NCBI GenBank assembly: GCA_016872215.1
Contig: VHAX01000001.1
Coordinates: 54,004 to 118,003, forward strand
Length of the DNA: 64,000 nt
Source: Sphingomonadales bacterium
GTDB taxonomy: Bacteria; Bacteroidota; Bacteroidia; UBA7662
Direction: 5' to 3'
Shown here: positions 12,601 to 45,938 of the stretch, in pieces
How the letters are laid out: every line of letters starts with the position of its first letter
Position numbering within the stretch: the stretch's first letter is position 1
The notes under the pieces: model-generated
What the model was told of the DNA's origin: nothing
Seen by the model: the letters and a program-made list of their open reading frames with translations, nothing else
Databases searched by the model: none
Made by a program: the position numbers and the translations under genes

Positions 12601-13770
12601 CGATACATCGCGGATTTGTTGCCTGCAGTCGTATTCAATACCATTGGTGGCTCTTTGCGCTACGACAACACTGCTCAATCGCCTATAACCAATTCGACTG
12701 TACAGTTGCTATCGGGCACCACCATCATACAGTCGGCTACAACCACGTCGACTGGCTCATTCAATTTTGGAAACTTACCCGACGGCGCCTATAGTATGGT
12801 GGCATCTACAACTAAGCCATGGGGAGGTGTAAATGCCACTGACGCTCTCAATGTGGCCAGACATTTTTCCAACACTCAGTTGCTTTCTGGCCTTCGCCTC
12901 ACCGCAGCTGATGTTAATGGTTCGTCCTCCATCAACTCCACAGATGCTCTGAACATATCAAGGCGCACTGCTGCAGTGATTACCACATTCTCTGTAGGCA
13001 ACTGGTATTTTGAGTCGCCCCAACTGACTGTGAGTGGTGGAACAACTACCACTCAAAACATCAAAGGCATTTGCTTTGGGGATGTCAATGGCAGCTACAA
13101 CCCTGCACTGAGAACACTACCCACGGTTTCACTCATTAATGGCGCCACGACAACCGGTTTGTACACCTCAATCCCGGTAACGGCAGCAGAAGACATAAAA
13201 CTAGGTGCTGTCACCCTAATTATGGACATTCCACAAGGCGTTGAAGTTACTGAAATCGTTCCGGCTGCGCTCATAAGTGGCTCATTTGTGTCTACCATAG
13301 TTAACGGGCAGGTAAGAATTAGTTGGTATTCACTCGATGAAGTGCAGTCATCTGCAGGCGAAGAATTGTTTAGCCTGCGCACCCGTTACAATGGTCAACG
13401 CTCAATCGCTGCATCGGAATGGACAATCGATGCGATTAGTGAACTGGCAGACGGATGGGCCAATCCATATACACGTTCCGTATTGAAAATTGGCGTATTG
13501 GCTGGAGTCGAATCAAACAGTGTTTTATATCCAAATCCCTCGAATGGGGTTGCCAACCTACGTTTTGAATTAACCCAAACAGCGCAAGTTCACATCCGAA
13601 TCATGGACATGTCCGGACGCCAAATCCACAGCATAAACCTAAATCAGTCGACCGGTATCCATTTAGTTGAGATGCCATATCTCGCTACTGGTCAGTATCT
13701 GGTACGCCTAAACATTGAATCGGACAACACATCCAGCAGCGAAGTACACCGTTGGGTTGTGAAGCACTAA
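9604..13770 (+). CDS. Giant T9SS-secreted surface protein (1388 aa) with an FN3-like domain, a dockerin-like Ca-binding module, a cohesin-like module and a C-terminal sorting domain
   Basis: Signal peptide (...IALTLIAFGISSSAQA). FN3-like TATPGNGTVTLTWTNPSD. Dockerin-like GGVNATDALNVARHF...ADVNGSSSINSTDALNISRR (nt ~12820-12965). Cohesin-like LGAVTLIMDIPQGVEVTEIVPA...VNGQVRISWYSLD (nt ~13150-13400). T9SS CTD VLYPNPSNGVANLRFELTQTAQVHIRIMDMSGRQIHS.... Confidence 0.7.
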   Translation: MKTNILFLSNSVRGQYQKSVVRPLFSSFIALTLIAFGISSSAQAQTDTLATWELTGINTTIPPWGLSPLPAQIVSPAVTTDGWTRGAGVLFTAAGLSTTGSPAGNAWGGNGWDAYTTAGANNIDSALFRGDFVSISFNVVAGQTVSFSSIPAYNIRRSSSGPNTGQWQFSVNPNGTFVNIGNPITWGTVTTGTGNPQIALDLSTIADLQNLSGGTSVTFRIVNTGATGSGGTWYLNQLTAAGRDFSFMGSVGGGGNPTVTLTLGAVTPGLFCTMASGQSTVFANYSSTGTLTGPVELQLSNAQGSFTSPTVLGNSPASFGTITATLPSGLPNGTGYMFRLVSGSTVSSPSSSVRIYSTPLEATAFTATPGNGTVTLTWTNPSDCFDQALVAADANAINGVPSGNIFLSNPIFGSGANLNNGYVVFAATGNSITVTGLTNGTTYHFKVFTQGGNTWSSGISVQATPFTTGVLPIVNISSFVGTDSLGALTNLGSRYRISGVVHGINQYRSTSTPLGVQYIVLDQSGGITVRRAGTGFGISGLAQGDSVVAEGILEQYNGLAQLNIDTMIQISTGNVLHPAQVVNTVSELTENKRIRINNLYILSGSWPATGSPNSNLIVTNGTDTMQLFILNLTNIPGTTPPAGLFDVIGYGGQYDVSSPLTSGYQLQPHFSYDIMPVTVATPTLNFTRVDTFIQNASTSLLMTLAVQNPRTTAQSVSFTVNASSGAAYGTNWETYPPVVGNALTLPIPANATTASFSLILYGNIPVGRTDTMRFTISSATGGYVAGPLSSAAVRVGNLVAPVLPEYSIGIIRGNNNGGVADSINVNLRTRGIVLGLNKRPAGLEFHIFDKNSNTGIGVFRNTGNLGYTVREGDSILVQGIVSQFNGLSQITVDQLTLLDSNRTLPTPQLVTAMGEQTESRLIQMNNLTMVTPSQWPTPGTTGSGRTVRVTNGVDSFDVRIDNDVNLFGTPAPTGPFNMVGIGGQFSTVTPRVGGFQLMPRYIADLLPAVVFNTIGGSLRYDNTAQSPITNSTVQLLSGTTIIQSATTTSTGSFNFGNLPDGAYSMVASTTKPWGGVNATDALNVARHFSNTQLLSGLRLTAADVNGSSSINSTDALNISRRTAAVITTFSVGNWYFESPQLTVSGGTTTTQNIKGICFGDVNGSYNPALRTLPTVSLINGATTTGLYTSIPVTAAEDIKLGAVTLIMDIPQGVEVTEIVPAALISGSFVSTIVNGQVRISWYSLDEVQSSAGEELFSLRTRYNGQRSIAASEWTIDAISELADGWANPYTRSVLKIGVLAGVESNSVLYPNPSNGVANLRFELTQTAQVHIRIMDMSGRQIHSINLNQSTGIHLVEMPYLATGQYLVRLNIESDNTSSSEVHRWVVKH

Positions 13771-13908: not shown

Positions 13909-13995
13909 TGGTGCCCAGGACTGGACTCGAACCAGCACAGGATAACTCCCACTACCCCCTCAAAGTAGCGTGTCTACCAATTTCACCACCTGGGC
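13909..13995 (-). tRNA. tRNA-Leu (anticodon GAG), class II with a long variable arm
   Basis: The reverse complement GCCCAGGTGGTGAAATTGGTAGACACGCTACTTTGAGGGGGTAGTGGGAGTTATCCTGTGCTGGTTCGAGTCCAGTCCTGGGCACCA has a 7-bp acceptor stem, a D-loop, the anticodon arm CTACT-TTGAGGG-GGTAG (GAG at positions 34-36), a long variable arm, the T-arm GGTTCGAGTCC and an encoded CCA. Confidence 0.8.
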
Positions 13996-16608: not shown

Positions 16609-18591
16609 TTAGCCTTTAATTTGTAGAGATCTATAGAGCTCTGTAGCCTGGGGGTGACCAGGAAACCTAGCCAGTAAACTCTTGAGCGCGGCAATTGCCT
16701 CAGGTTTTTGTTTTCGGAAGAGCAGCAGGCCAATGAAATTCATGCGTGCGGATAGGTTATCGGGTTCCAGTGAGAGAGCCTTGCGGTACCAGTGCTCCGC
16801 CTTACGATCATCCCCTGCCCTCAAACTTAGGTATCCCAGGTTGGTCATTGCGGGAACGTACGACGGCTGCTCGCGCAATAACTCCTGAAGGTGATCCGTA
16901 CACTTTTGTACCTCTCCCCCATTCAATTCGGCCAGAGCAAATTTCAATCGAAAGTCGAGCTGATAAGGCATAAGCATAACAGCAACAGATAAATATGATT
17001 GTGACAATTCAAGATTCCCATTCTCCAGCAGTAGCTCCCCAAGGCGGTAAGCGCTCCAGGCGTCGAGGCGACCCAGCCAATTTCCGTGACGCGCAGCCAG
17101 CCGAACCGCACCGGGTATATCATGGCGCAGAAAAGTCAAATGGATCGAAGTTATGAGCCACAACAAGCTATCACTGCCAACTTCCATTTGTTTCAACCAA
17201 AATCCCGCTGAATCGAGAAATTCAGGTTGTGGGTCAAAACGTTCAAATTGCTGCAACAAAGCTCTTGCACGGGTGAGCGCATCCGGGTTGGGTTCATTGA
17301 TGCTGGCTAGACCCACAAATCGTCCCCTTGCCACCATAATCGAACGTCCATTTCTAGGATAGACCCTGATTTTATGATCTGTAATGCTAACATGAGGAAT
17401 GTCGCTCGTGCCCGTTTTTTGCATGTGACAAGAAACACAATCGTTATTCCGAACCTTACGCTCTGTCATGGGGGCGCCGCAGTCATCCTGACTGCTGTGA
17501 CAGGATCGACAGGCTGCGCGATAATGGCTGGTCGGCGTCGACTCCACGCTCTTATGAGGATTGTGGCAGCTGATACAACTTAGGATACCCGATGACCGCT
17601 TGTAACATTCCGACTGCATAAGGCGATCGGGGTGCGAAGCCATAGTGAAATGTTCCTCCTCACCTTCATAACGCGGCAGAAAGACACTCAAGACCTCATC
17701 GAGGTGCATTCCGGGCCGAAACGAAGTAAAATCCTTGCCTGGTTTGAGCACTGCGTTGCCCTGCAGATGGCAGCGTTGACAAATACTCATCTGAAGTGAA
17801 ACCGGTATGCGTCGTGGATTCACGATTCGATAATCCGGACTCACCGAGGTATCCACCAAGGTTCCGCTACGAATCCCCTCCACATGAAGGCGACCCGGAC
17901 CATGGCAGCGCTCACAATCGATCCCCGAAGGCACTCGCGCATACTTATGCTCAGAACCAGGCACCTGATCGGGATAGGCATTGTGGCAACTGATGCACTC
18001 CGACAATATAGCGCGACCGAATCGGGCATTGTTGCCGCGCTCAAAGCCGGGCGGCAAATCCCAATAACCCTTTTGCGTGTAGTAGGTCGCCGGCATCTGA
18101 TAGAGGTATCCGCCAATGCTGATCAAATGGCTGTTGGTGTGCTGCCCCGAGCCCACTACATAGCTGATTTGCTCGACACGATTGTGTACTGTATCCCCGC
18201 CCTGCAATCTGAATTCCCGCAAAAAGAGCGATGAATCGATCCGGAATGGGAGGTAGTGAAGATCATTCAGAGAATCGTACACCACATGTTGACCATCCCA
18301 GTCGGCCCGAGAGTGAATAATGTTGGCCGGTCCGAACGAACGACCCATTCCGGTTTGCATAAAACTGGAATAGATGCCGGCATGACAGCTACCGCATACT
18401 TCCTTTCCCACATAACCGGCACTGTCATAAAGATTTAAATAACGTTCGCCTACCTGCCTATCCGCCATCTTTTGGTCGGAAGAAGACACCGGTCCACACC
18501 GCTGCAATACCAACCAGGAAACCGCTAACAAAACCAAGATCTGAATTCGATGGGAACGCACAGCCTTCAGGCAAAACCGAGTCATGGGCAT
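16609..18591 (-). CDS. Secreted multihaem c-type cytochrome (7 CXXCH) fused to a C-terminal TPR domain
   Basis: Signal peptide MPMTRFCLKAVRSHRIQILVLLAVSWLVLQRC. Seven CXXCH motifs (CGSCH, CISCH, CERCH, CQRCH, CISCH, CRSCH, CVSCH) in the first ~420 aa. TPR-like repeats in the last ~230 aa (...AEHWYRKALSLEPDNLSARMNFIGLLLF...). The stop is 5 nt from the mltG start. Confidence 0.75.
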   Translation of the reverse strand: MPMTRFCLKAVRSHRIQILVLLAVSWLVLQRCGPVSSSDQKMADRQVGERYLNLYDSAGYVGKEVCGSCHAGIYSSFMQTGMGRSFGPANIIHSRADWDGQHVVYDSLNDLHYLPFRIDSSLFLREFRLQGGDTVHNRVEQISYVVGSGQHTNSHLISIGGYLYQMPATYYTQKGYWDLPPGFERGNNARFGRAILSECISCHNAYPDQVPGSEHKYARVPSGIDCERCHGPGRLHVEGIRSGTLVDTSVSPDYRIVNPRRIPVSLQMSICQRCHLQGNAVLKPGKDFTSFRPGMHLDEVLSVFLPRYEGEEEHFTMASHPDRLMQSECYKRSSGILSCISCHNPHKSVESTPTSHYRAACRSCHSSQDDCGAPMTERKVRNNDCVSCHMQKTGTSDIPHVSITDHKIRVYPRNGRSIMVARGRFVGLASINEPNPDALTRARALLQQFERFDPQPEFLDSAGFWLKQMEVGSDSLLWLITSIHLTFLRHDIPGAVRLAARHGNWLGRLDAWSAYRLGELLLENGNLELSQSYLSVAVMLMPYQLDFRLKFALAELNGGEVQKCTDHLQELLREQPSYVPAMTNLGYLSLRAGDDRKAEHWYRKALSLEPDNLSARMNFIGLLLFRKQKPEAIAALKSLLARFPGHPQATELYRSLQIKG

Positions 18592-18679
18592 TTTTAGCAA
18601 AACGTCCGAAAAATACACCTTAACGCCCTGAAATTCAAGTTGAGGTTCTATTTTTGCCCCTAAATCGTAACTCACACTT

Positions 18680-21334
18680 ATGGCGTTGTCAACCACCTAC
18701 AATCCGGCCCAGACAGAAGAGAAATGGTATGATCTCTGGCTGCAACACGCCTGTTTCCGTTCACAACCCGATCACAGGCCAGCCTATTCACTGGTCATCC
18801 CCCCACCCAACGTGACCGGGGTGCTGCACCTCGGACATATGCTTAACAACACCATTCAGGATGTTTTGGCACGCAAGGCCAGGCTCGACGGAAAGAATGT
18901 TTGCTGGGTACCCGGCACCGACCATGCATCGATCGCCACGGAAACCAAAGTGGTGAATATGCTGCAGGAACAAGGCATTAAAAAGGATGACATAGGCCGT
19001 GATGAGTTTTTGCGCCACGCCTGGGCATGGAAAGAGAAATATGGTGGCATTATCCTCCACCAACTCAAAAAACTGGGAGCCTCGCTTGACTGGGAACGCG
19101 AAGCGTTTACGATGTCGCCCGAACTCAGCGGATCGGTCACGGATGTATTCATTGACTTATACCACAAAGGCTATGTATACCGCGGTGTACGTATGGTGAA
19201 CTGGGATCCGGCCGGAAAAACAGCAGTGGCCGACGATGAAGTCATCTTCAAAACAGTAGCCTCGCGGATGTGTCACCTTCGTTACCGCTTCGTGGATCGT
19301 CCCGATGAATATCTCGTGGTGGCCACGGTGCGGCCTGAAACCATTATGGCTGACCGCGCAGTGTGTGTACACCCCGATGACCCCCGCTACCAGCACCTGC
19401 ACGGACAAATGCTTCGCATACCGCTCACGGGAAGAGCCATTCCAATCATTGCAGACCCTTTTGTGAGCATAGACTTTGGCACGGGCTGCCTCAAAGTAAC
19501 CCCGGCACATGACCCCAACGACTACGTCCTTGGGCAGAAATTCGGCCTTGAGATTGTAGACATCCTCGACGATACTGGAAAAATAAACGAGAAATCCGAA
19601 ATTTTGGTGGGAGAAGATCGGTTAGTGGCCCGCAAAAAGATTATTAACCTAATCAGCGAAGCCGGCGACCTCGAGAAAATCGAAGACTATCAAAGCAATG
19701 TTGGCCACAGCGAACGCACCAACGCGGTAATCGAGCCCCGCCTAAGCATGCAGTGGTTTGTTCGAATGGACGAGCTCACCCGGCCTGCACTCGAGGACGT
19801 GCTATCAGGGGCTGTACGGTTGCACCCCGACAAATTCATGGGCACCTATAGGCATTGGATGGACAATGTGCGCGACTGGTGCATATCCCGACAATTGTGG
19901 TGGGGACACCGCATTCCGGCCTGGTATGCCCCCGACGGAAGCGTTTGGGTGGAACGAACGGCAGAGGAAGCCGCGGCCCTCAGCGGTGGGCGCTGGAACG
20001 CGGCCGACTTATCGCAGGACGAAGATGTTCTAGATACCTGGTTTTCGAGTTGGCTTTGGCCCCTCACCGTATTCGACCCCGAAATCACCCATAAGACACC
20101 TGCTGAGGCCAACACCGACCTGCGCTACTACTACCCCACCCAGGTGCTGGTGACGGGCCCCGACATCCTTTTCTTTTGGGTGGCCCGCATGATGATGGCC
20201 GGAAGAATATACATGAACCAAATTCCCTTCCACGATGTATATCTGACCGGTATTGTGCGCGACAAACAAGGGAGAAAGATGTCGAAATCGCTGGGGAATA
20301 GTCCCGACCCCCTTGACCTGATCGAGCGCTACGGCGCCGACAGCCTACGCATGGGCCTGCTCCTGAGTTCGCCCGCAGGCAACGACCTGCTGTATGATGA
20401 GGCGCTTGTAGCACAAGGACGGAATTTTGCCAATAAAATCTGGAACGCTTTCCGCCTGATTAAGGGATGGCAACAGGCATTACAAGATGCCAGAAATCCC
20501 TCCGAAACACCCAGCATCCAAGGCGATCTGTCCGATTTGCACCCAGCTGTTGAATGGTTTGGCCACCGCCTGCATCAATTCCGACTACAAATGGAAAGCG
20601 ATTACGCAAAATTTCGTTTGTCGGATGTGGCCCAAGGTCTGTATAAACTCATCTGGGATGATTTCTGCTCGTGGTATCTCGAGATGGTAAAGCCCCCCTA
20701 TGGCAGCACCATCGAAGAAGATGTTCTGACTGCAACACGCCTGTATCTCGATACCTTGTTGCAGTACCTACACCCGGTAATGCCCTTCCTGACCGAAGAA
20801 CTTTGGCATGCACTCGACCCCGACCGTCAGGATTCGGATTTTATAGGACTCACTTCCCTACCCGGACGAGTTGAACCGAATCTGGGCATCCTCCACAACA
20901 CGGGGCAAGTACAAGAGATCATCATCCAATTACGGAATTTCAGAAACGAGCGACAATTGTCGCCCAAACACCCCATATCGCTATGGTTGCCGGGAACTCC
21001 CCACCTGCGCCGCTATTCATCGACTATTGCCCGTATGGCTGGTTGTGGATCAATCAATTGGGGCAAGCCCGAGCAAGAATCGCAGTGTATTCAATTTTTG
21101 GCCTTCACCGATGTTTGCTATGCCGACTTGGGCCTTCCCCAGAATTCACAGGCCAATCGTGAACGGATTCAATCTGAAATCGAATACCTGGAAGGATTTC
21201 TGGTATCGGTCCAAAAAAAGCTGTCGAACGAGCGATTCGTGGCCTCAGCCACGGAAGCTGTTCTGGCTAAAGAAAGGCAGAAAGAGGCCGACGCACGCCT
21301 CAAGCTGGAGAATCTGCGGAAAGCAATTTCCTGA
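18680..21334 (+). CDS. valS: Valine--tRNA ligase
   Basis: 884 aa. HIGH motif PPNVTGVLHLGH, KMSKS motif GRKMSKSLGNSPDP, and N-terminus TTYNPAQTEEKWY typical of ValS. Confidence 0.95.
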   Translation: MALSTTYNPAQTEEKWYDLWLQHACFRSQPDHRPAYSLVIPPPNVTGVLHLGHMLNNTIQDVLARKARLDGKNVCWVPGTDHASIATETKVVNMLQEQGIKKDDIGRDEFLRHAWAWKEKYGGIILHQLKKLGASLDWEREAFTMSPELSGSVTDVFIDLYHKGYVYRGVRMVNWDPAGKTAVADDEVIFKTVASRMCHLRYRFVDRPDEYLVVATVRPETIMADRAVCVHPDDPRYQHLHGQMLRIPLTGRAIPIIADPFVSIDFGTGCLKVTPAHDPNDYVLGQKFGLEIVDILDDTGKINEKSEILVGEDRLVARKKIINLISEAGDLEKIEDYQSNVGHSERTNAVIEPRLSMQWFVRMDELTRPALEDVLSGAVRLHPDKFMGTYRHWMDNVRDWCISRQLWWGHRIPAWYAPDGSVWVERTAEEAAALSGGRWNAADLSQDEDVLDTWFSSWLWPLTVFDPEITHKTPAEANTDLRYYYPTQVLVTGPDILFFWVARMMMAGRIYMNQIPFHDVYLTGIVRDKQGRKMSKSLGNSPDPLDLIERYGADSLRMGLLLSSPAGNDLLYDEALVAQGRNFANKIWNAFRLIKGWQQALQDARNPSETPSIQGDLSDLHPAVEWFGHRLHQFRLQMESDYAKFRLSDVAQGLYKLIWDDFCSWYLEMVKPPYGSTIEEDVLTATRLYLDTLLQYLHPVMPFLTEELWHALDPDRQDSDFIGLTSLPGRVEPNLGILHNTGQVQEIIIQLRNFRNERQLSPKHPISLWLPGTPHLRRYSSTIARMAGCGSINWGKPEQESQCIQFLAFTDVCYADLGLPQNSQANRERIQSEIEYLEGFLVSVQKKLSNERFVASATEAVLAKERQKEADARLKLENLRKAIS

Positions 21335-22439
21335 CAAATTCCTCCCAGCTGAATTCCTGTTTTTTAACAGCCACGCGAGCCGACATCTCAGTGTGTCGAT
21401 TTCTCAACAAAAAATCAAGCATACAATCCGCGATTTTTTCCGGATTCGGTGGGCAGACATAACCAGACTGATTTGCATCAACCAACTCGGCCAGACCACC
21501 CACATCCGTCACTAACATCGGGGTATTGTAATGAAATCCAATCTGGGTTACCCCACTCTGTGTGGCGTGGTGATAGGTTTGGGTAACCAAATCCGCGGCA
21601 GAAAACAACAACCGCACTTCATCATTCTTGATGAAGCGGGTCATCAAAACCAGATGGGGAGCCAGATTGCGCTCCTGAATAATGCGGTTGTAGCGGTCGG
21701 GTGACTCATAAAACTCGCCCGCAACCACCAATCTGACCCGGTGCGACCTCAATCGCTCATCCGCAAACGCCTCCAACAACAAGTCGAGGCCTTTATAGGC
21801 CCGGATAAAACCAAAATACAGGAAACAGGTGAACTCAGGATCTAAACCCAGCGCTTCACAGGCCAACCGACGATCAACCGGTTCGCCAAAATTATCGTAG
21901 AGGGGATGCTTGAGTCGAACCGAAGGCCGCCGATAACCCAACGCCAGTAAATCGGCCCGAACGGAGACACTAAGGGTTGCCGCCGCATCCGTCTGGGCTA
22001 AAAAAAAGCGAGTCAGCCATTCCGAAAAGGGAAAGGATTCATGCGGGATAATGTTGTCGACCAGCGCAATGCGCTTCGCCCTAGAACCCAATAAGTGTGA
22101 CCAAAACGAGAGCATTCCCAGACAAGGCGCCATAAAAGGCATCCAATACCGAAGAATTAAATAATCGGCGCGAAAACGGCACACATAGCGCGCCGTAAAA
22201 AACCAATTGATCGGATTCAGCGCATGCAGCAACACGCGGATCACCAATCCTTCCGGGGCAGGCTCCTCGCTCATCTGGGTTTTGCCTGGAAATAGCCAAC
22301 CAGGGTATTGCATCGTGAAGGTGATGATCTCCACCTCATGACCCTGAACCTGAAGGCTATAAGCCAGACGTTCATTGAACGTGGCCATTCCTCCTGCCCG
22401 CAGTGGCCACGCAGGGCCCACAATGAGCACCTTACTCAA
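21300..22439 (-). CDS. Glycosyltransferase family 4 (GT-B, GT4/GT1-like)
   Basis: N-terminus (TTG start) SKVLIVGPAWPLRAGGMATFNERLAYSLQVQGHEVEIIT and a C-terminal E...E-type sugar-donor domain. Overlaps the 3' end of valS convergently and overlaps the upstream GT2 stop by 8 nt. Confidence 0.7.
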   Translation of the reverse strand: MSKVLIVGPAWPLRAGGMATFNERLAYSLQVQGHEVEIITFTMQYPGWLFPGKTQMSEEPAPEGLVIRVLLHALNPINWFFTARYVCRFRADYLILRYWMPFMAPCLGMLSFWSHLLGSRAKRIALVDNIIPHESFPFSEWLTRFFLAQTDAAATLSVSVRADLLALGYRRPSVRLKHPLYDNFGEPVDRRLACEALGLDPEFTCFLYFGFIRAYKGLDLLLEAFADERLRSHRVRLVVAGEFYESPDRYNRIIQERNLAPHLVLMTRFIKNDEVRLLFSAADLVTQTYHHATQSGVTQIGFHYNTPMLVTDVGGLAELVDANQSGYVCPPNPEKIADCMLDFLLRNRHTEMSARVAVKKQEFSWEEFVRKLLSADSPA

Positions 22440-23406
22440 ATCCGGTTCTTTGACTGATTAAATACCGATTGCGGTCGGCCGAATTTCGGGTAACGAGCTC
22501 CGCCAAAAATCCGGTCAAAAAAAGCTGCGCCCCAACCACGATCAGCACCAGCGACAAAAAGAACAAAGGCTGTTGGGTAACCGACCGATAAGGCAATGAA
22601 AAGGCTATGTTATACAATTTCAGACCGATTAGAAAAAAGGTGATAACACCCCCTGTAACAAAACAAAGGGTGCCGTATAGTCCAAAAAAATGCATCGGAC
22701 GCCTGTCGAATTTGGACATGAAGTAGATCGACATCAAATCCAAAAATCCGTTTATAAAACGATCCATGCCAAACTTGGTGTGCCCGTATTTGCGTGCTTT
22801 ATGCTGAACCACCTGTTCCTCTATTTTTCGGAAACCGGCCCAACGGGCAATCACCGGAATGTAGCGATGCATCTCACCATAAACCTCAATACTCTTAACA
22901 ACCCTCGAATGATATGCTTTTAGTCCACAGTTAAAATCATGCAGATTGCGAACGCCAGATACCTTACGGGTGGCCCAGTTGAACAAGTGCGTCGGGATGG
23001 TCTTACTTAACGGATCGTATCGCTTCTTCTTCCAACCACTCAAAATATCCAACTGTTCTTGCTGCATCCGCTTGTACATATCCGGCAACTCATCTGGGGA
23101 GTCTTGGAGGTCGGCATCCATCGTGAATACAATCTCTCCACGAGCTGCCTCAAAACCCACATTCAGTGCAGGGGATTTACCATAATTCCGCTGGAATCGA
23201 ATTCCGCGCACCTGGCCCGGGTACTGCTCAGATTGGCGCGCGATCACAGACCATGAATCGTCGGTGCTACCGTCGTCGATGTAAATGATTTCAAATGACA
23301 AATTACTCCGCATCAGAACCTCCACGATCCAACGGGTGAGTTCGGGAAGCGATTCCTCTTCATTCAACTGAGGAATCACGACTGAAATATTCAACGGATT
23401 ATTCAT
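22432..23406 (-). CDS. Glycosyltransferase family 2, polyprenyl-phosphate sugar synthase type (DPM1/GtrB-like) with C-terminal TM helices
   Basis: MNNPLNISVVIPQLNEEESL...IIYIDDGSTDDS...FTMDADLQDSP (DXD). Two C-terminal hydrophobic helices. The start ATG at 23406 overlaps the stop of the upstream DUF4199 gene (ATGAATAA). Confidence 0.75.
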   Translation of the reverse strand: MNNPLNISVVIPQLNEEESLPELTRWIVEVLMRSNLSFEIIYIDDGSTDDSWSVIARQSEQYPGQVRGIRFQRNYGKSPALNVGFEAARGEIVFTMDADLQDSPDELPDMYKRMQQEQLDILSGWKKKRYDPLSKTIPTHLFNWATRKVSGVRNLHDFNCGLKAYHSRVVKSIEVYGEMHRYIPVIARWAGFRKIEEQVVQHKARKYGHTKFGMDRFINGFLDLMSIYFMSKFDRRPMHFFGLYGTLCFVTGGVITFFLIGLKLYNIAFSLPYRSVTQQPLFFLSLVLIVVGAQLFLTGFLAELVTRNSADRNRYLISQRTGFE

Positions 23407-23998
23407 GGTCCTGCGCTGAATCATCCATGAATAAGGGCTCATTCTTCCTTGTGAAGGCTGAAGCAATCAACGCCAAAAACAAGCCAACTATAACCAAAAT
23501 CATCCAGGATGTGGCCAGCGCCCGTGGGGTCTGGCTAAAATCACGTTCCTCAATAGCCTCCAGCTGCTCCTCTATTTGTTCACTCGGCACATCAAACTTC
23601 TCCAGCATTTGTTCCACTTGTTCAAGCGTGATCTCCTTCATATGTTCGTCCAATCCCTTGTCAATAACATTGTAAAGAACCCACATGAAGGCTACGTTGA
23701 GCAAAGTACCCAGCATACATACGCGCAACATCACCCACACACTCGTTCCATAATTCATCCAACCCCCCCCCTCTTCACGGCGATGCTCTAAGGCTGCCCC
23801 TACCATGAGGGCCACCAGCAACCCAATCGACAACAGAGAATTCCACCAGGCAATCATCAAAGCCGGATCAATTATGTATTGCACCGCAATAAAAGCAATC
23901 TGCAACACGCCTGTAATCAAACCCCATTTCAGCCAAACAGGCCATCCGCCCCTCTCTTCTTCGAGCGGATCCTTATAGAAATTGTGATCCCGATTCAT
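23399..23998 (-). CDS. DUF4199-like small membrane protein
   Basis: 199 aa with four predicted TM segments and an acidic coiled-coil insert (EHMKEITLEQVEQMLEKFDVPSEQIEEQLEAIEE). The family assignment is tentative. Confidence 0.45.
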   Translation of the reverse strand: MNRDHNFYKDPLEEERGGWPVWLKWGLITGVLQIAFIAVQYIIDPALMIAWWNSLLSIGLLVALMVGAALEHRREEGGGWMNYGTSVWVMLRVCMLGTLLNVAFMWVLYNVIDKGLDEHMKEITLEQVEQMLEKFDVPSEQIEEQLEAIEERDFSQTPRALATSWMILVIVGLFLALIASAFTRKNEPLFMDDSAQDHE

Positions 23999-24046: not shown

Positions 24047-24565
24047 TTAGGAGGTTCGGTAATACAAGGAAACTAAAAAGGCAGTGAATACCGACCAAAA
24101 AAAGCGCGTGACCCAGAGGAAGGATGCCAGGAACGATGGGGTGGTTTCAAAAATACCATTTCGAAGCAACTCGGGCTGTTGTTCGTCGTAGTACTTAACG
24201 ATCGTGGCCCTGCCCTGATCGAGTTCCTCCAACAATCCCTGCACATATAGCTGCCATACCGCATCGTTCATGGTCCACATCCAAACCACCACAGAATAAG
24301 CAGTAGCGTTCAGCATACCGATTCCTACACCAGCCACCAAGCCATCCGTTACATTAAGCTGACCATTATTGTGGTCACGCCGAAACTTCCTGAGAGCCCA
24401 CACCATACCCGCAACGGTCGTTACAGACAGCAGCAAACGAAATTGCCCGAACGGATTGTAGCTAAATTGGATCAGCAGCCAAGCCAGAATCCAGGTCGCC
24501 CCTGCGGTGGCCAGACCCGCCCTGAACCCAACCGTTTGCATCATATAGCGAAAACGCTCGCGCAT
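24047..24565 (-). CDS. DUF4199-like small membrane protein (paralogue of the 23399-23998 gene)
   Basis: 172 aa, with the same 4-TM topology and similar W-rich helices (VVVWMWTMNDAVWQLYVQGLLEE). Confidence 0.4.
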   Translation of the reverse strand: MRERFRYMMQTVGFRAGLATAGATWILAWLLIQFSYNPFGQFRLLLSVTTVAGMVWALRKFRRDHNNGQLNVTDGLVAGVGIGMLNATAYSVVVWMWTMNDAVWQLYVQGLLEELDQGRATIVKYYDEQQPELLRNGIFETTPSFLASFLWVTRFFWSVFTAFLVSLYYRTS

Positions 24566-24569: not shown

Positions 24570-25436
24570 TCAGCTGTGTTGGATCAAGCCAAAAAATAAA
24601 CTCTGCACCGAATTGGGACGTAAATGTTGGGGAAAACACCATTCGGATTTGAGCGCTGCCATCAGGCACATGTAAACTGGAAGTATGTGCTTGTCGACCA
24701 ACCGGGCTGAAAATACATAGCCCATCCCGTGCATCGGGTCTGCAGGATCCTTGAAAAAGCACATCAAACCGGGCAGGAGTCCATCCAAAGGGGTGCCTAC
24801 CGACACGTTCAGGCTCTCACGGATGAGTCGGGGGTAGGGAAATGCCATACTGCTTGATTGTTGAATCAATACTTCAAATACGGCCAGGTCGTCCTGCAGG
24901 TCAAAATCTTCATCGGTCAGAAAGGCATCTACAAAATCATTCAGATCCGCTTCTAGTCCCGACGCATTCACCTCCTGCAAATACATCAATACAGTCAGCA
25001 ATTCACTACCCCTATCCACTAACATCTCCTCATCGGCCAGCCAGACCTCATTCAAATCGCCCTTGGCGCATTCCTCACTCAGCCAGTAGGTATAGCTTAC
25101 ATCAAACAGAAAATGCGCCGATTCCTCGTCAATCAGATAGCGATCCACAAAGCCGTCAAGCTGTGCTACTCGTGCCCGCAGTTGGCCCGGACAATTCCAA
25201 ACCTGATCCAGGAACTCGTCCCATATCGATAAAGACGCACCCTCTTTCTTTCCGGCCGCGTCGATGGCCACGGCAATGGCGGAATTACTTATGATGCCGG
25301 GGCGGACGGAGGAATCCGCCGCTGAATCGGGTAGACAACCGGTTCTGATCCAATTCGACTCATTGGCGAAGATTGGGGTGTTGCTCAACAGGAATCCGGA
25401 GAACAGCGCCTCGGCCGCCAGCTTCCAGGTTTGCAT
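24570..25436 (-). CDS. Hypothetical acidic protein (288 aa), translationally coupled to the dihydroorotase-like gene
   Basis: Open frame with strongly acidic Asp/Glu-rich composition. Its start overlaps the upstream stop by 1 nt (TAATG). No recognisable family. Confidence 0.4.
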   Translation of the reverse strand: MQTWKLAAEALFSGFLLSNTPIFANESNWIRTGCLPDSAADSSVRPGIISNSAIAVAIDAAGKKEGASLSIWDEFLDQVWNCPGQLRARVAQLDGFVDRYLIDEESAHFLFDVSYTYWLSEECAKGDLNEVWLADEEMLVDRGSELLTVLMYLQEVNASGLEADLNDFVDAFLTDEDFDLQDDLAVFEVLIQQSSSMAFPYPRLIRESLNVSVGTPLDGLLPGLMCFFKDPADPMHGMGYVFSARLVDKHILPVYMCLMAALKSEWCFPQHLRPNSVQSLFFGLIQHS

Positions 25437-26701
25437 TATGGTAAATAGGTTTGTTTTTTATGAAGAACGGCACGGATGCGCCCTGCAAATGATTGTCCAT
25501 GGTAGGGAATGTTAACTCCCCGGGTGGCGCACAGATCCTTGTCGAACCGGGTGTAATCCCCCCTGTCAAATACCATAAACTCTGCTTCCTGACCCCGCTC
25601 GATCCGGGCTTGCTCCACTCCCAATCGCCGTGCGGGTCGGGAAGTGATGGCGTCTATCGCTTTTTCCAATTCCTTTTCCTGCTGAAATACGGAATGCACC
25701 AGTAAAAAAACCACTTCCAAAGAAGCTATTCCATATTCTGCCCGTGCAAATTCTACATCCTTTCCCTGCTCATCCTCGGGCATATGATCCGAACAAATCA
25801 CATCTATACTGCCATCGAGAACACCCATACGCAATTGCTCCCGATCACCCAAAGCCCTTAACGGCGGCCAAAGCTTATAGTCTGTCTCAAAACGCTCCAG
25901 GTCCTCATCACAATGGTACAAATGAGCCGCTGTCACCCCACAGGTCACATCCAGACCCGCCTCCCTGGCCTGGCGAATAAACTTAAGACTACCTGCACTG
26001 CTGATCTTAGTGAAATGCAGTTGACCCCCGAAATAGGTCAGCACCGCCAAATCGCGCATCACCTGTATGTGCTCTGCCAAATCCGGAATGCCCTTAAGGC
26101 CCAATCGCAGGCTCACCTGGCCCTCATGCATGAGTCCACCCCGTGACAAATCCTGATCCGCTGGAACAATCTGAACGGGACAACCCACCTGCCGGGCATA
26201 CTGAAGCGCCAGCCCCAGGGTACGAGCAGATTCCATAGGGGCATCAGCCTGGGAAAACATCCGTACCCCCGCCCTATGCAAGTCGAACATCTCAGTGATT
26301 TCCTGCCCCTTTAAATCGCGCGTCAGCGCACCGGCAACATACAGTTCGACCGGTAAGCCCTGAGCCAATTTGTGTATGGCCTCAACTTCCCCTCTGCTCT
26401 GCAGCACAGGATGGGTGTCGGGCTGGAGAAGGACACGCGTAAATCCACCGCGAAAGGCCGCCTCAGAACCGCTTCGGAGTGACTCCTTGAACTCGTGCCC
26501 GGGTTCCCTGAATCGGGCACAAGTATCGACCCAGCCCGGACACATCCAAAGATCATGGCCCACGATTTCCTGTGCCTCACCCAACTCCAAATGCTCATCC
26601 AGTTCCTCCAATCGCCCATTTCGAACCCGTACATCCATACGCTTACCATGATGAGAGGAGCCCCTCTGGGTAATTCGCACTGATCTGAACAATAGATGCA
26701 T
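25436..26701 (-). CDS. Dihydroorotase-like amidohydrolase with a degenerate first metal-binding motif (possible PyrC-prime pseudoenzyme)
   Basis: 421 aa. DVRVRNGRLEEL...HDLWMCPGWVDTCARFREPGHEFKESLRSGSEAAFRGGFTRVL aligns to the DHOase PG.ID.HVHLREPG...KE...G..AA..GGFT block, but with D-T-C-A-R in place of D-x-H-x-H. A later block, VICSDHMPEDE, stands where DHOases have DHAPH. Confidence 0.6.
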   Translation of the reverse strand: MHLLFRSVRITQRGSSHHGKRMDVRVRNGRLEELDEHLELGEAQEIVGHDLWMCPGWVDTCARFREPGHEFKESLRSGSEAAFRGGFTRVLLQPDTHPVLQSRGEVEAIHKLAQGLPVELYVAGALTRDLKGQEITEMFDLHRAGVRMFSQADAPMESARTLGLALQYARQVGCPVQIVPADQDLSRGGLMHEGQVSLRLGLKGIPDLAEHIQVMRDLAVLTYFGGQLHFTKISSAGSLKFIRQAREAGLDVTCGVTAAHLYHCDEDLERFETDYKLWPPLRALGDREQLRMGVLDGSIDVICSDHMPEDEQGKDVEFARAEYGIASLEVVFLLVHSVFQQEKELEKAIDAITSRPARRLGVEQARIERGQEAEFMVFDRGDYTRFDKDLCATRGVNIPYHGQSFAGRIRAVLHKKQTYLP

Positions 26702-26719: not shown

Positions 26720-28753
26720 TTATGTGATATTTCGCGCTAAAATCATCTCCAACAGCAAACATAGCAAAACACCGGCAAGCAGCCATCGCCAGAGACCAGA
26801 ACTGCCCGCTTCGGCTACCAATCCACCGGCCACCGAAGAATCGCGAAGGGAATAGCTGTTCCATCCTCGTTCCCCGGCCAAAGCCGACAGAGATTCGGCC
26901 GACCAATACTGGAGCTCTGACTCATCCGATGAGGCGTTTAGGGCCACAATCTCTCCGGCCAGGGGTTGGCCGTCGAGCATGACGGAATAGTGACCAGGGG
27001 TCATGATACCGTCCATGATTCCCAGGCCCAGGCGGTCGCCCTGACGGCTTACCTGCGGAACCATGCGCTGTGGACCATTAACGAGTGATATGAGTCCATC
27101 CGGCCGAACTCCCGGAATGCTGAGCTCGATTCTTGGGGTAGAGCCCAATCGCCAGGAAGAAGGCATATTTCCACCCGCCATCAACATAGCACGGTAGAGT
27201 GTGGGCACCCACAAAGCCTGTTCCGGGAAATCAGACCATTCCTTTTCCGGCGCACTCAACAACAGAAGCATTTGGCCAGCCCCAACCTTGCGACGCACGA
27301 GCCATGGCGATCGGTCAGCCAATTGCATGATGGTGTAATCGTCGGGCAAGAGGTTGGTCGACCAGTATTTTTGAACCGTAGGAAGCGCCAATTGTTCCGG
27401 AATCCGTTCGAAGGTCTCCTGATAGAGAGGATCCTTCACCTCTATCCGGGCAACCTGCTGTCGCTGTGCCACCACATTCAGACATTTTCCTCCTCCGGTG
27501 GCCGCGAGCAAGGAATTGACCACTATGGGATCCGAAAGACCGGAGGGGAGCACTACTACGGATCCTCCCTGCTGCATTTTATCATGTAGTGCGGTCAACA
27601 ACCCGCTGCTGACCTGCGATAGCCGGTCCAGAATCACCCCCTTGGCCGAAGAAAGCGCGTTGTAGTCGATGTTCAATCGCGAGGTCACGCTGCAATTCAT
27701 AAACTCATCTCCTGAGAACAAGCCACTTACATAGGGACTAGCTTCCGCTTCGGTGATGTGAAGCAGCGGGAAACGATCGGCCACCTCCATACGCATATAC
27801 CAATGCCGGTCGTAGTCGAGTCCCGACTCCTCCACCGACAAACGTGCGGTGAGGATGCCAGCCTGAGCAGGTGTGAATCCGAGAGTATCCGATGCAGTTC
27901 CAAACGCGGGAACGTCCAGGGTCGAAAGGCCCTTTTGAGCACCCTCCATCTCCAGAAGGATGCGCACACCTTCTGCATCGCGACTACCCCCATTTCGAAC
28001 TGCCAAAATGAGTCGCGCAGGCTGACTGGTTTGCAACAAGGGCTGCTCCACATATGCTGTGTCGATGTAGACATGCGCGAACGGGGCGGGACTAAACTGA
28101 AGCAGGTGCACCACAGCGGATGTATCGATGGAAATGTCGGCCAGAGGGTAAGCCGAATTCTGGAAATCGCCCAACCAATAAAGGCGTGCCTTATGGGTTA
28201 CCCCGGTATAGCGTATCAGCTCCAACTGCCGTTCCTTGATTTGATTGAGCGGGCGCACAGCCGCGGTGACCGTAATCTGAGCCAGGGCCTGAATAAACTC
28301 ATCGCGCCCCAACCAGCGTTGACTTCCGGGAGCGAGCTCATGTGAAATCAATTGAAACTGATCGGTAGCGGGTAATTGCTGGGCCAGCGACCGGGCCGCC
28401 TCACGCGCTTGCTCCAACAAAATTCCACCTTCGCCTGCCAGCGACATACTGGGTGAATTGTCGACGAACACCGAATGGTAGCCCTGGCGAAGTGCGGAAT
28501 TATTTTTCCCATCGCCACCCCACTCCGGACGGGCAAAAGACAGCACCAATAGAACCACCGCCAAAGTACGGCTTGCCAGAACCAGAAGATGTTTGAGGTG
28601 ACTACGCTTGCGGTTTTGTTCTCGGATCTCCTTGAGCAAGCTGACGTTGCTAAACAAAATGCGCCGTGGAGCTCTGAAACTAAACAAATGAACAACCAGA
28701 GGGACGAGGGCCAAAAAAAGACCCCAAAGGGCCGCCGGTTGGGCAAATTGCAT
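26720..28753 (-). CDS. BatA-domain (N-terminal double-TM) von Willebrand factor A protein with a C-terminal TM anchor
   Basis: N-terminus QPAALWGLFLALVPLVVHLFSFRAP (TIGR02226-like). vWA MIDAS motif VFVDNSPSMS (DxSxS). C-terminal TM LWRWLLAGVLLCLLLEMIL. 677 aa. Confidence 0.55.
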   Translation of the reverse strand: MQFAQPAALWGLFLALVPLVVHLFSFRAPRRILFSNVSLLKEIREQNRKRSHLKHLLVLASRTLAVVLLVLSFARPEWGGDGKNNSALRQGYHSVFVDNSPSMSLAGEGGILLEQAREAARSLAQQLPATDQFQLISHELAPGSQRWLGRDEFIQALAQITVTAAVRPLNQIKERQLELIRYTGVTHKARLYWLGDFQNSAYPLADISIDTSAVVHLLQFSPAPFAHVYIDTAYVEQPLLQTSQPARLILAVRNGGSRDAEGVRILLEMEGAQKGLSTLDVPAFGTASDTLGFTPAQAGILTARLSVEESGLDYDRHWYMRMEVADRFPLLHITEAEASPYVSGLFSGDEFMNCSVTSRLNIDYNALSSAKGVILDRLSQVSSGLLTALHDKMQQGGSVVVLPSGLSDPIVVNSLLAATGGGKCLNVVAQRQQVARIEVKDPLYQETFERIPEQLALPTVQKYWSTNLLPDDYTIMQLADRSPWLVRRKVGAGQMLLLLSAPEKEWSDFPEQALWVPTLYRAMLMAGGNMPSSWRLGSTPRIELSIPGVRPDGLISLVNGPQRMVPQVSRQGDRLGLGIMDGIMTPGHYSVMLDGQPLAGEIVALNASSDESELQYWSAESLSALAGERGWNSYSLRDSSVAGGLVAEAGSSGLWRWLLAGVLLCLLLEMILARNIT

Positions 28754-29532: not shown

Positions 29533-30714
29533 CTAACGGCCAGACGGATATTTCTCGAGTAGCCAGGCATCATGCTGAATCTTCGCACGAATCAAAGTCA
29601 AAAAAGAATCGGCTTCGGCCGCACTTCTGACACTAAATACTGTACCCACGCGTTTGAGTCCACCCGCAGAGGGAGAAATCACTGCCGGCTCAAACCCGGA
29701 CTGTTTCAAAGCCAACTCCTGCCTTTCAGCATTCCTCTTGGAGGAAAAACAACCCACCACCACGACTGCATCAAAAGTCGCCTCCGAAATATGAGATTCC
29801 AATTCCAAGGAGGAATAATTCGGGGCTGCAATTTCCGGCTGGCGTGGTATACGGGCCACAGCTTCCGGCTGGCGTGGTATACGGGTCACAGCTTCCGGCT
29901 GGCGCGGTATACGATAGGTTGAACCTGGATAATCGGGCGAAACTTTACCTTGAACAGGAAGCGCATTGGAATCAATGGTCGGGGCTAAACTCATGGATGG
30001 TAAACTGTCAGTTTCCCGTTGAAAAGTATCTGCCTGAGATATCGTGCCAGCCTCGTATTCCATTATCGTTGAATCCATAGGCGGATAAAGGCGGGGAAAT
30101 TCCGGCAAAAGGGAGGAATCATGTCTTACTCTAACCTCACTCAATCCGGCACGTTGTGTCTCATCAGACAATCCGTATTGTCTAAACAACAGCACTGCGG
30201 GCCCAAGCACCGCAATCCATAGTGCTGCCCACCCAATCATCCCCATCCGCCTTTTCCAAATTCCCTTTCTATTGATCTCATCTGGAACAGAAGGCCCATT
30301 CAATCCATTGGGAAACAACATACGGGTGGGCGGCACAATGGCCGGATACCGATATGATGCCAAAAAATGCACGAGCAGGGGATGCTCGGGCTCCAGTCGT
30401 CCCTCTCCTACACCAGTCGGCACTATCCTTCCCAGACCCAATAAATCAAAAGATTCAGTCCAGTCGGTCGGCACTTCATCGAGCAAAAGGGAGGAAGAAA
30501 ACTCCCATTGTGACACCTGGGTATTGGCAGTTGTGACGGCAGCGCCCCTGTTTAGGTACCAACGAAATTGAGGGGGTTCGAGGCGACGATTAGAAGATGC
30601 ACGTTGAACGGGATCCCGTTTTTTATAGAAAACACCCAACCCCGGAACATGAACGCCCATGTTTGCGGTCAGCAATTGGGTGGCCAGCTCGTTAATAGCG
30701 CAGTCGCGGTTCAT
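29533..30714 (-). CDS. HU-like N-terminal domain / SPOR-domain protein with an internal proline-rich tandem repeat
   Basis: N-terminus MNRDCAINELATQLLTANMGVHVPGLGVFYKK (HU/IHF-like fold motif). One TM (IGWAALWIAVLGPAVLLF). C-terminal SPOR domain FDAVVVVGCFSSKRNAERQELALKQSGFEPAVISPSAGGLKRVGTVFS. Repeat YRIPRQPEAVTRIPRQPEAVARIPRQPEIA. Confidence 0.6.
   Translation of the reverse strand: MNRDCAINELATQLLTANMGVHVPGLGVFYKKRDPVQRASSNRRLEPPQFRWYLNRGAAVTTANTQVSQWEFSSSLLLDEVPTDWTESFDLLGLGRIVPTGVGEGRLEPEHPLLVHFLASYRYPAIVPPTRMLFPNGLNGPSVPDEINRKGIWKRRMGMIGWAALWIAVLGPAVLLFRQYGLSDETQRAGLSEVRVRHDSSLLPEFPRLYPPMDSTIMEYEAGTISQADTFQRETDSLPSMSLAPTIDSNALPVQGKVSPDYPGSTYRIPRQPEAVTRIPRQPEAVARIPRQPEIAAPNYSSLELESHISEATFDAVVVVGCFSSKRNAERQELALKQSGFEPAVISPSAGGLKRVGTVFSVRSAAEADSFLTLIRAKIQHDAWLLEKYPSGR
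29833..29915 (-). repeat. Three tandem copies of a 30-bp coding repeat (TTCCGGCTGGCGTGGTATACGGGCCACAGC) inside the HU-SPOR gene
   Basis: Copy 1 at 29833-29862. Copy 2 at 29863-29892, with one mismatch. Copy 3 at 29893-~29915 is partial and diverged. The repeats are in-frame and encode RIPRQPEAV(T/A). Confidence 0.85.
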
Positions 30715-38080: not shown

Positions 38081-38682
38081 TCAGGCTCTTCGCCCGTGAG
38101 GTCTACCTGCGTTGAAGGTTTGTCCCTCCGACCAACCGTGGTCGAGGAACACATCAACATCGTCGAAATACCGGAAAACTATCTCATCCGGATCACGATA
38201 GTGGTATTCGATCCCTTCAATTATATCGGAAAGTGAAGCTGAGACCAGGGGCGAACCCATGACAGCGATGAGCATGCCTGCTACCGGATGATTGGGTATT
38301 CGTAGCCCGATGTTCCTTCGCCGGTTTTGGAGTTGGCGAGGTGCCAGGCCGGATGCAGGAAGTATGAAAGTATATGGACCAGGCAGGGCCTTACGAATCA
38401 ATCGAAAATAGGTGTTTGGAATGGGAAGTGTGTTAGGCGGCGAGGTGACTGAAATCAGCACACACCAGGGAAAGAGTTGAGGCGTCGGGAAGTCCGCGTA
38501 CCTTCAGCAATCGTTCAACCGCCCCTTGCGATCGTATATCAGCGGCCAATCCATAATAAGTATCGGTTGGATAGATGACGATACCACCCGACTGAAGCAC
38601 CTCTGCGGCCCTCAGAATGTTTCTTTTATCGTATCGGGCTCTTCTGTGTAGGTGATTAATTGCTCCAAATTCTACGCATCAT
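38081..38682 (-). pseudogene. tsaC: L-threonylcarbamoyladenylate synthase (TsaC/YrdC) gene disrupted by at least one frameshift
   Basis: One frame (38678-38433) encodes ...YDKRNILRAAEVLQSGGIVIYPTDTYYGLAADIRSQGAVERLLKVRGLPDASTLSLVCADFSHLAA* (YrdC N-terminal half) with no in-frame ATG. The +1 frame (track ORF 38461-38081, GTG start) continues ...NTYFRLIRKALPGPYTFILPAS...PNHPVAGMLIAVMGSPLVSASLSDII...VDVFLDHG (YrdC C-terminal half). An ATGATG at 38682-38677 lies in a third frame. Confidence 0.6.
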
Positions 38683-41259: not shown

Positions 41260-41268
41260 ACCCGAATA

Positions 41269-42572: not shown

Positions 42573-42573
42573 A

Positions 42574-44407: not shown

Positions 44408-44425
44408 ATGCAGCTTGATATAGGA

Positions 44426-45784: not shown

Positions 45785-45938
45785 GTTTTCAATTGACAAA
45801 AACGAACGCGCCATCAACCTGTAAGCTTGAGGGCAAACACGGGGTTTGGCGGCGCAAAAGTATAAATAGAAGCGCAAAGCACAACCTTAATTCTAAAAAT
45901 AATGTTTCATTCCGTATCATTGCCGCACGAATTCGATA

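Follow-up and report, generated by a model that had tools for sequence, protein, structure and literature searches.

In this study, we analysed a window of 64 kb (the whole stretch of 64,000 nucleotides presented here, from contig VHAX01000001.1 of assembly GCA_016872215.1) and, within it, a gene for a putative dihydroorotase (DHOase)-like pseudoenzyme, which is part of a cluster of genes that encode membrane proteins and glycosyltransferases. The gene lies on the reverse strand at exactly 25436..26701 as an open reading frame (ORF) of 421 aa that runs from ATG to stop, and its product is an exact sequence match to NCBI MBM3917935.1, which is named 'amidohydrolase family protein'. It is the second of seven tightly packed genes, all on the reverse strand, which are separated by gaps of +18, -1, +4, +48, -8 and -8 nt in order from the first one. 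This first gene encodes a 677-aa BatA-N (TIGR02226) membrane protein (26720..28753), with 18 nt between its stop codon and the start of the DHOase-like gene. The third gene (24570..25436) encodes a 288-aa protein that has neither a Pfam nor an NCBIfam family; its ATG overlaps the stop codon of the DHOase-like gene (TAATG), to which it is translationally coupled, and it was found only in the lineage of the window and in close relatives (loci L001, L003, L009 and L046 in our numbering of related loci). Two genes for DUF4199 membrane proteins of 172 aa (24047..24565) and 199 aa (23399..23998) follow, both recognised by Pfam, and then a gene for a polyprenyl-phosphate glycosyltransferase of family 2 (GT2) that is similar to ArnC and GtrB (22432..23406; Pfam Glycos_transf_2). 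The longest ORF of the GT2 gene begins at 23466, the probable ATG is at 23406 (324 aa), and the match to the ArnC-like model NF007986 (E=1.7e-47) is far under the cut-off of that model. The last gene of the same-strand cluster encodes a family 4 glycosyltransferase (GT4, 21300..22439; Pfam), whose start codon is uncertain. Pfam scans of all of the large ORFs revealed neither pyrB nor a canonical pyrC in the window, which supports an earlier reading of the same DNA (the first-pass annotation) that had placed the gene in a membrane/glycosyltransferase cluster with no pyrB nearby; the BatA-like part of this context was found to be conserved across the protein family. A search with Rfam returned only a tmRNA and a tRNA and hence no PyrR or other RNA elements in the window, while the scans of the cluster for promoters and terminators gave counts that were no better than those for shuffled sequence.

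The 421-aa protein can be placed in the amidohydrolase superfamily, as the Pfam model Amidohydro_1 (PF01979) matched residues 53-382 with 30.6 bits at a cut-off of 25. More than 20 NCBIfam DHOase models also matched it, each of them under its curated cut-off; the best of these, NF005791, gave E=4.5e-98 and 329 bits compared to a cut-off of 442, and TIGR00857 gave 275.9 bits compared to 279.05. By the cut-offs of these models (the NCBIfam equivalogs and TIGR00857), the protein does not belong to the active type-I DHOases (EC 3.5.2.3). The closest solved structures in a phmmer search were type-I DHOases, i.e., those of Bacillus anthracis (3MPG, E=3.3e-59), Thermus (2Z00), Aquifex (3D6N/4BJH) and S. 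aureus (3GRI), and, judged by sequence comparison, the homology to these enzymes is far beyond chance. An AlphaFold2 (AF2) model, which was built with 34 homologues, had a mean pLDDT of 92.5 and a pTM of 0.91. Foldseek aligned this model over its full length to 4YIW, 3MPG, 3D6N and 2Z00 with a template modelling (TM) score of 0.91, the adjacent beta-sandwich included, and the model thus has both the TIM barrel and the beta-sandwich of the long DHOases. In a comparison with a 75%-identical orthologue (L001), the nonsynonymous divergence (pN) was 0.15 and the synonymous divergence (pS), at saturated sites, was 0.76. The gene is under purifying selection and encodes a functional protein. A decaying pseudogene was ruled out by the intact ORF, the confident fold, a pN that was far under pS and the existence of a phylum-wide family; because the purifying selection is strong and the fold intact, the protein has to have some function.

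The metal site of the enzyme fold has largely been lost. The ligands, which are given here in the numbering of the B. anthracis DHOase 3MPG, were mapped using three independent alignments: phmmer against four solved type-I DHOases, MAFFT with 115 homologues and MAFFT with 133 sequences. All three concurred on the register of the HxH and DHAPH blocks. The degenerate HxH block PGWVDTCARFREPG (26498..26539, residues 55-68) is anchored by the invariant G56, D59, P67 and G68, and in it both of the alpha-zinc histidines are replaced, His59 by C61 and His61 by R63, while the substrate-binding Arg63 is kept as R65. The sequence Q151-A152 (26246..26251) stands where the type-I DHOases have D-D, and so the bridging ligand Asp151 is lost to A152; the ligands His178 and His231 are replaced by V179 (26165..26167) and K232 (26006..26008), respectively. 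Asp304, which is both a metal ligand and the catalytic residue, is kept as D305 within the SDHMPEDE block (25769..25792, residues 304-311), in which H306 is also kept; this block falls within segment 296-310, which is the best conserved one of the family. The remaining substrate-binding residues, Asn93 and His308, correspond to D95 and E309. Five of the six metal ligands (all except for Asp304) and two of the three substrate-binding residues (all except for the Arg) are therefore replaced, which does not fit an active type-I DHOase. The first-pass annotation had claimed that both of the zinc-ligand histidines of the HxH block were substituted and that SDHMPEDE occupied the DHAPH position; the same three alignments bear out both statements, and mapping all of the ligands onto the solved enzymes and the homologues showed that the loss was wider than had been noted. 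There is no other H-x-H in the 421-aa translation, which, together with the agreement on the register, rules out a histidine pair that is intact elsewhere in the protein.

The protein was found to have a large number of relatives. When 1.84 billion representatives were searched exhaustively with a profile, 5826 matches were obtained at E<=1e-30, canonical DHOases included. Among the candidates that were scored, the profile of the family itself matched 3334 clusters at E<=1e-40, and the named family members among these were Flavobacteriaceae isolates whose proteins were labelled 'dihydroorotase'. The top 150 representatives were all stand-alone proteins of 411-457 aa, and among them, there were no domain fusions that might name a partner. 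The ligands were surveyed in 147 of the top representatives, clustered at 50% identity. A maximum of four of the six ligands was kept in any of them, and 105 of the 147 kept one or none. The residues that replaced the ligands varied widely: R, G, N, Q, F or H at position 59, N, H, F or S at 61, F, H, R, L or Y at 178 and G, N, T, L or K at 231. The substrate positions 63, 93 and 308 were also variable (G/C/R, N/D/S and Q/E/H, respectively). The catalytic Asp was kept in 63 of the 147 and was lost in over half, while the neighbouring histidine, H306 in the window protein, was invariant in 146. We also analysed 80 genome loci of relatives, which were the best matches to one query and were dominated by Flavobacteriales; their ORFs were called and searched with iterated hidden Markov models that were built from the proteins of the window and from a proteobacterial PyrB and PyrR. 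HxH was absent from all of the Bacteroidota orthologues in these loci, and its replacements differed by lineage. No family-specific conserved polar cluster took the place of the ligands in the MAFFT alignment of 133 sequences. That the former active site varies freely and has acquired no substitute polar cluster points to a pseudoenzyme rather than to altered ligation. Of the two options that the first-pass annotation had offered, an amidohydrolase pseudoenzyme and an enzyme with altered metal ligation, only the former thus holds, and the latter was ruled out as the ligand-replacing residues are not conserved among the orthologues. We consider it very probable that the protein is non-catalytic and not a DHOase. 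To judge from these comparisons, it is a member of a large, uncharacterised Bacteroidota family of stand-alone proteins of ~420 aa with degenerate ligands. The most conserved 15-residue windows of the family were 296-310 (DGxIDxxxSDHxP) and, in second place, 197-211 (LGLKGIPxLAE). The latter contains the loop-5 block LGLKGIPDLAEH (26069..26104, reverse strand, residues 200-211), and it was not among the top six conserved windows of the canonical enzymes.

Among the closest known proteins are PyrC' or pDHO, the pyrX products of Pseudomonas aeruginosa and P. putida, which are subunits of the class A aspartate transcarbamoylase (ATCase) and which, like the window protein, are type-I DHOase homologues (~45 kDa) without zinc ligands; they also lack DHOase activity. 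We compared the groups in a neighbour-joining (NJ) tree of 62 non-redundant sequences (415 columns, Kimura distance, 100 bootstraps), which is a rough phylogeny only. In this tree, the canonical type-I DHOases were split from all three degenerate groups, i.e., the Bacteroidota sequences, PyrC' and a cyanobacterial group, with a bootstrap of 92%. The Bacteroidota sequences were monophyletic (92%), with the window protein nested inside them, and the group of PyrC' and the cyanobacterial sequences was their sister (94%). At positions 59, 61, 63, 93, 150, 151, 178, 231, 304, 305 and 308 (B. anthracis numbering), the canonical enzymes have the signature HHRNDDHHDHH, PyrC' has S/A-R-R-D-Q-A-R-R-D-H-V and the cyanobacterial group has Y-H-G-x-D-G-W-R-D-H-Y, while the signature of the Bacteroidota group is variable. 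The subclade of the window protein shares R63, R65, D95, Q151 and A152 (numbered as in the window protein) with PyrC', and thus its R-x-R, D95 and Q-A replacements; moreover, the derived residues S304, F271, F378 and D310 are common to PyrC' and the whole Bacteroidota family. At the position of K232, all members of the window's subclade have Lys and PyrC' has Arg, and the residue varies in the other sequences. The family would then descend from the type-I DHOases as a sister of PyrC'/pDHO, and a common origin of the degenerate groups is provisional because NJ on fast-evolving pseudoenzymes is prone to long-branch attraction. In the one cyanobacterial locus that was examined (L007, gene at 6001-7275; sequences P0106-P0116 in the tree), neither pyrB nor a BatA-like gene adjoins the degenerate DHOase-like gene.

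The gene context separates the Bacteroidota family from PyrC'. In all seven proteobacterial loci (L006, L059, L075, L080, L083, L084 and L086), the PyrC' gene overlaps or directly follows pyrB, with pyrR upstream in six of them, whereas pyrB adjoined the DHOase-like gene in none of the 72 Bacteroidota loci, and in two of them (L014 and L081), a pyrR-pyrB operon was found 6-8 kb off on the opposite strand. The resemblance to PyrC' that the first-pass annotation had suggested is therefore real at the level of sister clades and common residues, but the window protein cannot be counted as a PyrC': it belongs to a separate monophyletic clade, it falls under the NF005791 cut-off (329 compared to 442 bits), its gene is not linked to pyrB and its conserved neighbours are membrane proteins.

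A different neighbour was found in the Bacteroidota. Upstream sequence was available for 72 Bacteroidota loci, and in 61 of these, the DHOase-like gene was directly preceded by a BatA-like gene on the same strand; most of the gaps between the two were from -1 to +50 nt. The lineages with this adjacency included that of the window, Flavobacteriales and Sediminibacterium, as well as one metagenome-assembled genome (MAG) each of the Sphingobacteriaceae and the Cyclobacteriaceae. We defined a BatA-linked pseudo-DHOase family in this work (stand-alone, ~420 aa, degenerate ligands and a same-strand gene for a BatA-N/VWA membrane protein immediately upstream), and the window protein falls within it. 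A pair of DUF4199 genes lay downstream of the DHOase-like gene in L005, L009, L013, L037, L039, L044 and L088, and it was directly downstream in the window's lineage, the Sphingobacteriaceae MAG and loci of the Cytophagales type. In L009, L044 and the window's clade, this pair was present in addition to the BatA-like gene. In the Flavobacteriaceae (L008, L018, L024, L035, L036, L041 and many others), the DUF4199 genes are replaced by a gene directly downstream for a conserved membrane protein of ~108 aa, which has the motif ...GK..AI.SY.T.IG.IIA..MN...KN.FASFHIRQ.LGL... Orthologues of the GT2 (56-88% identity) were close to the DHOase-like gene in L001, L003, L005, L009 and L044 and 4-8 kb away in L011, L032, L040 and L055, and thus this linkage applies to a subset of the loci. 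A GT2 link was also considered for the Flavobacteriaceae and was rejected, as the GT2 upstream of their BatA-like gene is non-orthologous (25-30% identity over the N-terminal part only). The GT4 gene was kept in L001, L003 and L009.

The BatA-N protein of the window has the TIGR02226/BatA_N double-transmembrane domain at its N-terminus, a VWA domain, beta-sandwiches, a GATase1/ThuA-like domain and a C-terminal transmembrane helix. The invariant DxSxS motif of the metal ion-dependent adhesion site (MIDAS) is intact in the VWA domain (D98, S100 and S102), and the loop that joins the first two transmembrane helices has a strongly basic composition. Under the positive-inside rule, and following the description of TIGR02226, which we take to place the bulk of such proteins in the periplasm, the VWA and GATase1-like domains would face the periplasm. 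The pseudo-DHOase has no signal peptide. We propose that it may act as a non-catalytic scaffold by binding other proteins, and that its partners or pathway, if read from the gene order, would be the upstream BatA-N/VWA membrane protein, the downstream small membrane proteins and the polyprenyl-phosphate glycosyltransferase. In that case, the protein would belong to a membrane/envelope module, as a component that resides in the cytoplasm and has no catalytic activity, and not to the pyrimidine pathway. This BatA-like module is favoured because the best available evidence for a partner comes from the gene order, which is preserved in several orders with gaps close to zero. The functional link to the module may well exist, although we regard the case for it as evenly poised, and the same even balance applies to the composite view of an inert type-I DHOase fold that forms a family of Bacteroidota and is linked to the BatA-like module. 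A direct physical complex with the BatA-like protein is doubtful. The fullest version of the proposal, in which a fold of the pyrimidine pathway has left nucleotide metabolism entirely and the dead DHOase is the cytoplasmic partner of the BatA-like protein throughout the Bacteroidota, perhaps docking on its basic loop, and takes part with DUF4199 and GT2 in an unrecognised envelope or glycolipid-related module, is likewise doubtful.

Several observations weigh against this proposal. Because the bulk of the BatA-like protein would be periplasmic and the pseudo-DHOase lacks a signal peptide, the two could touch directly only at the basic cytoplasmic loop of ~30 residues (26-54) and at a short C-terminal tail, which would leave no large interface. 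The BatA-like adjacency was lost in most of the Cytophagales loci (L005, L013, L031, L037, L039 and L088) and in L076, and the 80 loci, given how they were chosen, are not independent samples. To our knowledge, the only role of bacterial pseudo-DHOases that has been established by experiment is in ATCase complexes, and loop 5, the ATCase-contacting element, is highly conserved in the family. Gene order points to the BatA-like module and homology to ATCase, and the two readings are not mutually exclusive.

The main rival is the homology-based one, which we consider possible but unlikely: the protein would be the Bacteroidota equivalent of PyrC'/pDHO, a non-catalytic subunit that stabilises or activates PyrB trimers in a class-A-type ATCase dodecamer and that is encoded away from pyrB. 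The grouping of the three degenerate clades apart from the canonical DHOases, the residues that are common with PyrC' and the choice of NF005791 as the best NCBIfam model all fit such a role, for which the pDHO of P. aeruginosa provides the precedent, being purely structural or activating (PMC7053772). The high conservation of window 197-211 is also in line with it, as loop 5 is reported to contact ATCase in the complex of the Aquifex DHOase (PMC9771888). The type-I DHOase of Aquifex aeolicus, which forms a DHOase-ATCase dodecamer (3D6N and 4BJH), is similar to the window protein in its fold (TM 0.91), sequence (190 bits) and conserved loop 5; however, the Aquifex enzyme keeps its zinc ligands and is active once it is bound to ATCase, whereas the window protein has lost five of the six. 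In the two Bacteroidota loci with a nearby pyrR-pyrB operon, pyrB had no adjoining PyrI gene. The order Bacteroidales uses PyrI. The PyrB of one of these (L081, Flavobacteriaceae) was closest to the ATCase of the Aquifex DHOase complex (201 bits; B. subtilis gave 191 bits and E. coli 143). Taken as sequence-based hints, the conservation of loop 5 and the PyrB similarity are indirect indications of a putative association with PyrB. In both of these loci, which are distant from each other, a conserved ORF of 110 aa follows pyrR-pyrB with a 2-nt gap or a 4-nt overlap (L081 396-728 and L014 17538-17870, both on the reverse strand); the two copies have 41% identity over 81 residues (E=1e-23), and the product could be an unrecognised ATCase-associated protein. 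A Pfam search with this protein, the Flavobacteriaceae protein of ~108 aa and the 288-aa protein of the window gave no significant families. What speaks against an ATCase partner is the absence of an adjoining pyrB from all of the Bacteroidota loci and the tight and wide coupling of the gene to that of the BatA-like membrane protein instead. Additionally, the score is under the NF005791 cut-off, the family lies outside the PyrC' clade in the tree, the NJ grouping itself could be due to long-branch attraction, and loop 5 is also conserved in type-I DHOases that have no demonstrated ATCase complex.

A second rival, which appears improbable, is that the protein has a non-catalytic role apart from both its neighbours and ATCase, for example, in sensing a small molecule or in regulating another enzyme of the pyrimidine pathway, in which case the gene order would reflect co-expression only. 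Selection and the intact fold, which show that there is some function, are compatible with this, as are the topology, which weakens the case for a direct BatA-like complex, and the cyanobacterial sister clade, whose gene in the one locus adjoins neither pyrB nor a BatA-like gene. However, the equivalents of R63, N93 and H308 (B. anthracis numbering) are not conserved in the family, which makes a pocket for carbamoyl-aspartate or dihydroorotate unlikely, and same-strand adjacency with near-zero gaps in several orders is rarely neutral. The weakest rival, which we regard as very improbable, is a hydrolase of the amidohydrolase fold with a non-histidine metal site or no metal at all, which, by analogy with ArnD that acts after ArnC, would be a candidate for the de-acylation of a polyprenyl-phosphate-linked amino sugar from the ArnC-like GT2; the window protein retains D305 and H306, the histidine is nearly invariant in the family, a metal might in principle be bound by C61 and K232 and the ArnC-like GT2 shares the gene cluster in several lineages, but the former ligand positions vary widely among the orthologues, the catalytic Asp is present in fewer than half of the representatives, no polar cluster substitutes for the ligands and the orthologous GT2 is linked in a subset of the lineages, the one in the Flavobacteriaceae being non-orthologous.

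With the scaffold proposal for the BatA-linked family in mind, other inactive or related amidohydrolases can be compared. Animal CRMP/DPYSL proteins are dihydropyrimidinase-like pseudoenzymes that have lost their metal site and been reused as binding proteins, and their cyclic-amidohydrolase fold matches the AF2 model at a TM score of ~0.8. However, they are derived from dihydropyrimidinase and are eukaryotic, tetrameric cytoskeletal adaptors, and so the analogy is one of the evolutionary route only. In fungi, a DHOase-like domain has a DHOase fold that is 'devoid of active site' and is retained as a structural element (PMC8442968), which is similar to what we propose for the window protein, although the fungal domain is fused between carbamoyl phosphate synthetase and ATCase, whereas the Bacteroidota protein is stand-alone. 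The fungal structure 5NNL was not among the PDB sequence matches of the window protein at E<=1e-10. The type III DHOase of Porphyromonas gingivalis (2GWN) belongs to the same phylum and the same superfamily, but is distant from the window protein (a partial sequence match at E=1e-15; TM 0.84 at 20% identity). It has a carboxylated lysine and a functional metal site according to PMC9771888, and an enzyme of the 2GWN type is presumably the real DHOase of these organisms.

Some further features of the window can be described. The MAG that contains MBM3917935.1 is labelled by NCBI as Sphingomonadales (Alphaproteobacteria), and the content of the window is typical of Bacteroidota: C-terminal sorting domains of the type IX secretion system (T9SS), a T9SS plug protein, DUF4199 and BatA are all present, and the nearest relatives are Sphingobacteriaceae and Bacteroidia MAGs. 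The Sphingomonadales contig or bin is probably mis-assigned. The two RNA genes that were found by Rfam are a tmRNA at 688-1094 on the forward strand, which encodes the tag peptide GNTSYALAA, and a tRNA-Leu(GAG) at 13909-13995 on the reverse strand. Between them on the forward strand lie the genes for two adjoining giant proteins, one of 1305 aa with YDG domains (5604-9521) and one of 1388 aa with dockerin-like, carboxypeptidase-regulatory-like and T9SS C-terminal sorting domains (9604-13770). In a 695-aa protein that is encoded at 16609-18696 on the reverse strand, TPR repeats come after weak motifs of the multi-haem cytochrome c type (Cytochrome_C7, paired CXXCH); the gene adjoins valS and a YceG-like gene, and the same valS neighbour was found in L001 and L003. 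A tandem repeat of 30 nt (29833-29913, 2.7 copies, 96% matches) encodes RIPRQPEAV repeats in a 393-aa protein without a Pfam family (ORF 29533-30714, reverse strand). According to Pfam, a complete-looking set of genes for the Na+-translocating NADH:quinone oxidoreductase, NqrA to NqrF, occupies 39940-45877 on the reverse strand and is adjoined by a gene for a succinyl-CoA-ligase-like ATP-grasp protein (38679-39869). Two tandem genes for S8 subtilases of ~900 aa lie on the forward strand at 54858-57575 and 57622-60288, with a T9SS C-terminal sorting domain being recognisable in the first only.

Full-text literature searches found no publications or experiments on the Bacteroidota pseudo-DHOase, on its BatA-like link or on the ATCase class of the Bacteroidota. 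The literature on DHOases mentions the Pseudomonas pDHO and not a Bacteroidota pseudo-DHOase (PMC7053772, PMC8442968 and PMC9771888). What is already known is that pseudo-DHOases exist as a kind, and the protein sequences are in the databases, where they are mostly mislabelled. Judging by their sequences, thousands of Bacteroidota proteins in RefSeq, UniRef and IMG that are named 'dihydroorotase' would be unable to bind the catalytic zinc, and metabolic reconstructions that score these proteins as PyrC would be wrong. Until now, bacterial pseudo-DHOases were known only as the ATCase scaffolds of pseudomonads and their relatives, whereas here a sister family is conserved throughout a phylum, next to another genomic partner that is conserved equally well. 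Which of the two, the BatA-like protein or ATCase, is bound can be tested in tractable Bacteroidota such as Flavobacterium johnsoniae or Pedobacter, and the outcome would also inform on the BatA-N/VWA and DUF4199 proteins. If the family binds ATCase, ATCases of the class A type would be far more common than was thought. If it binds the BatA-like protein, the fold of a nucleotide enzyme would have been recruited to a membrane process, and this would offer the first functional handle on the BatA-N (TIGR02226) and DUF4199 families.

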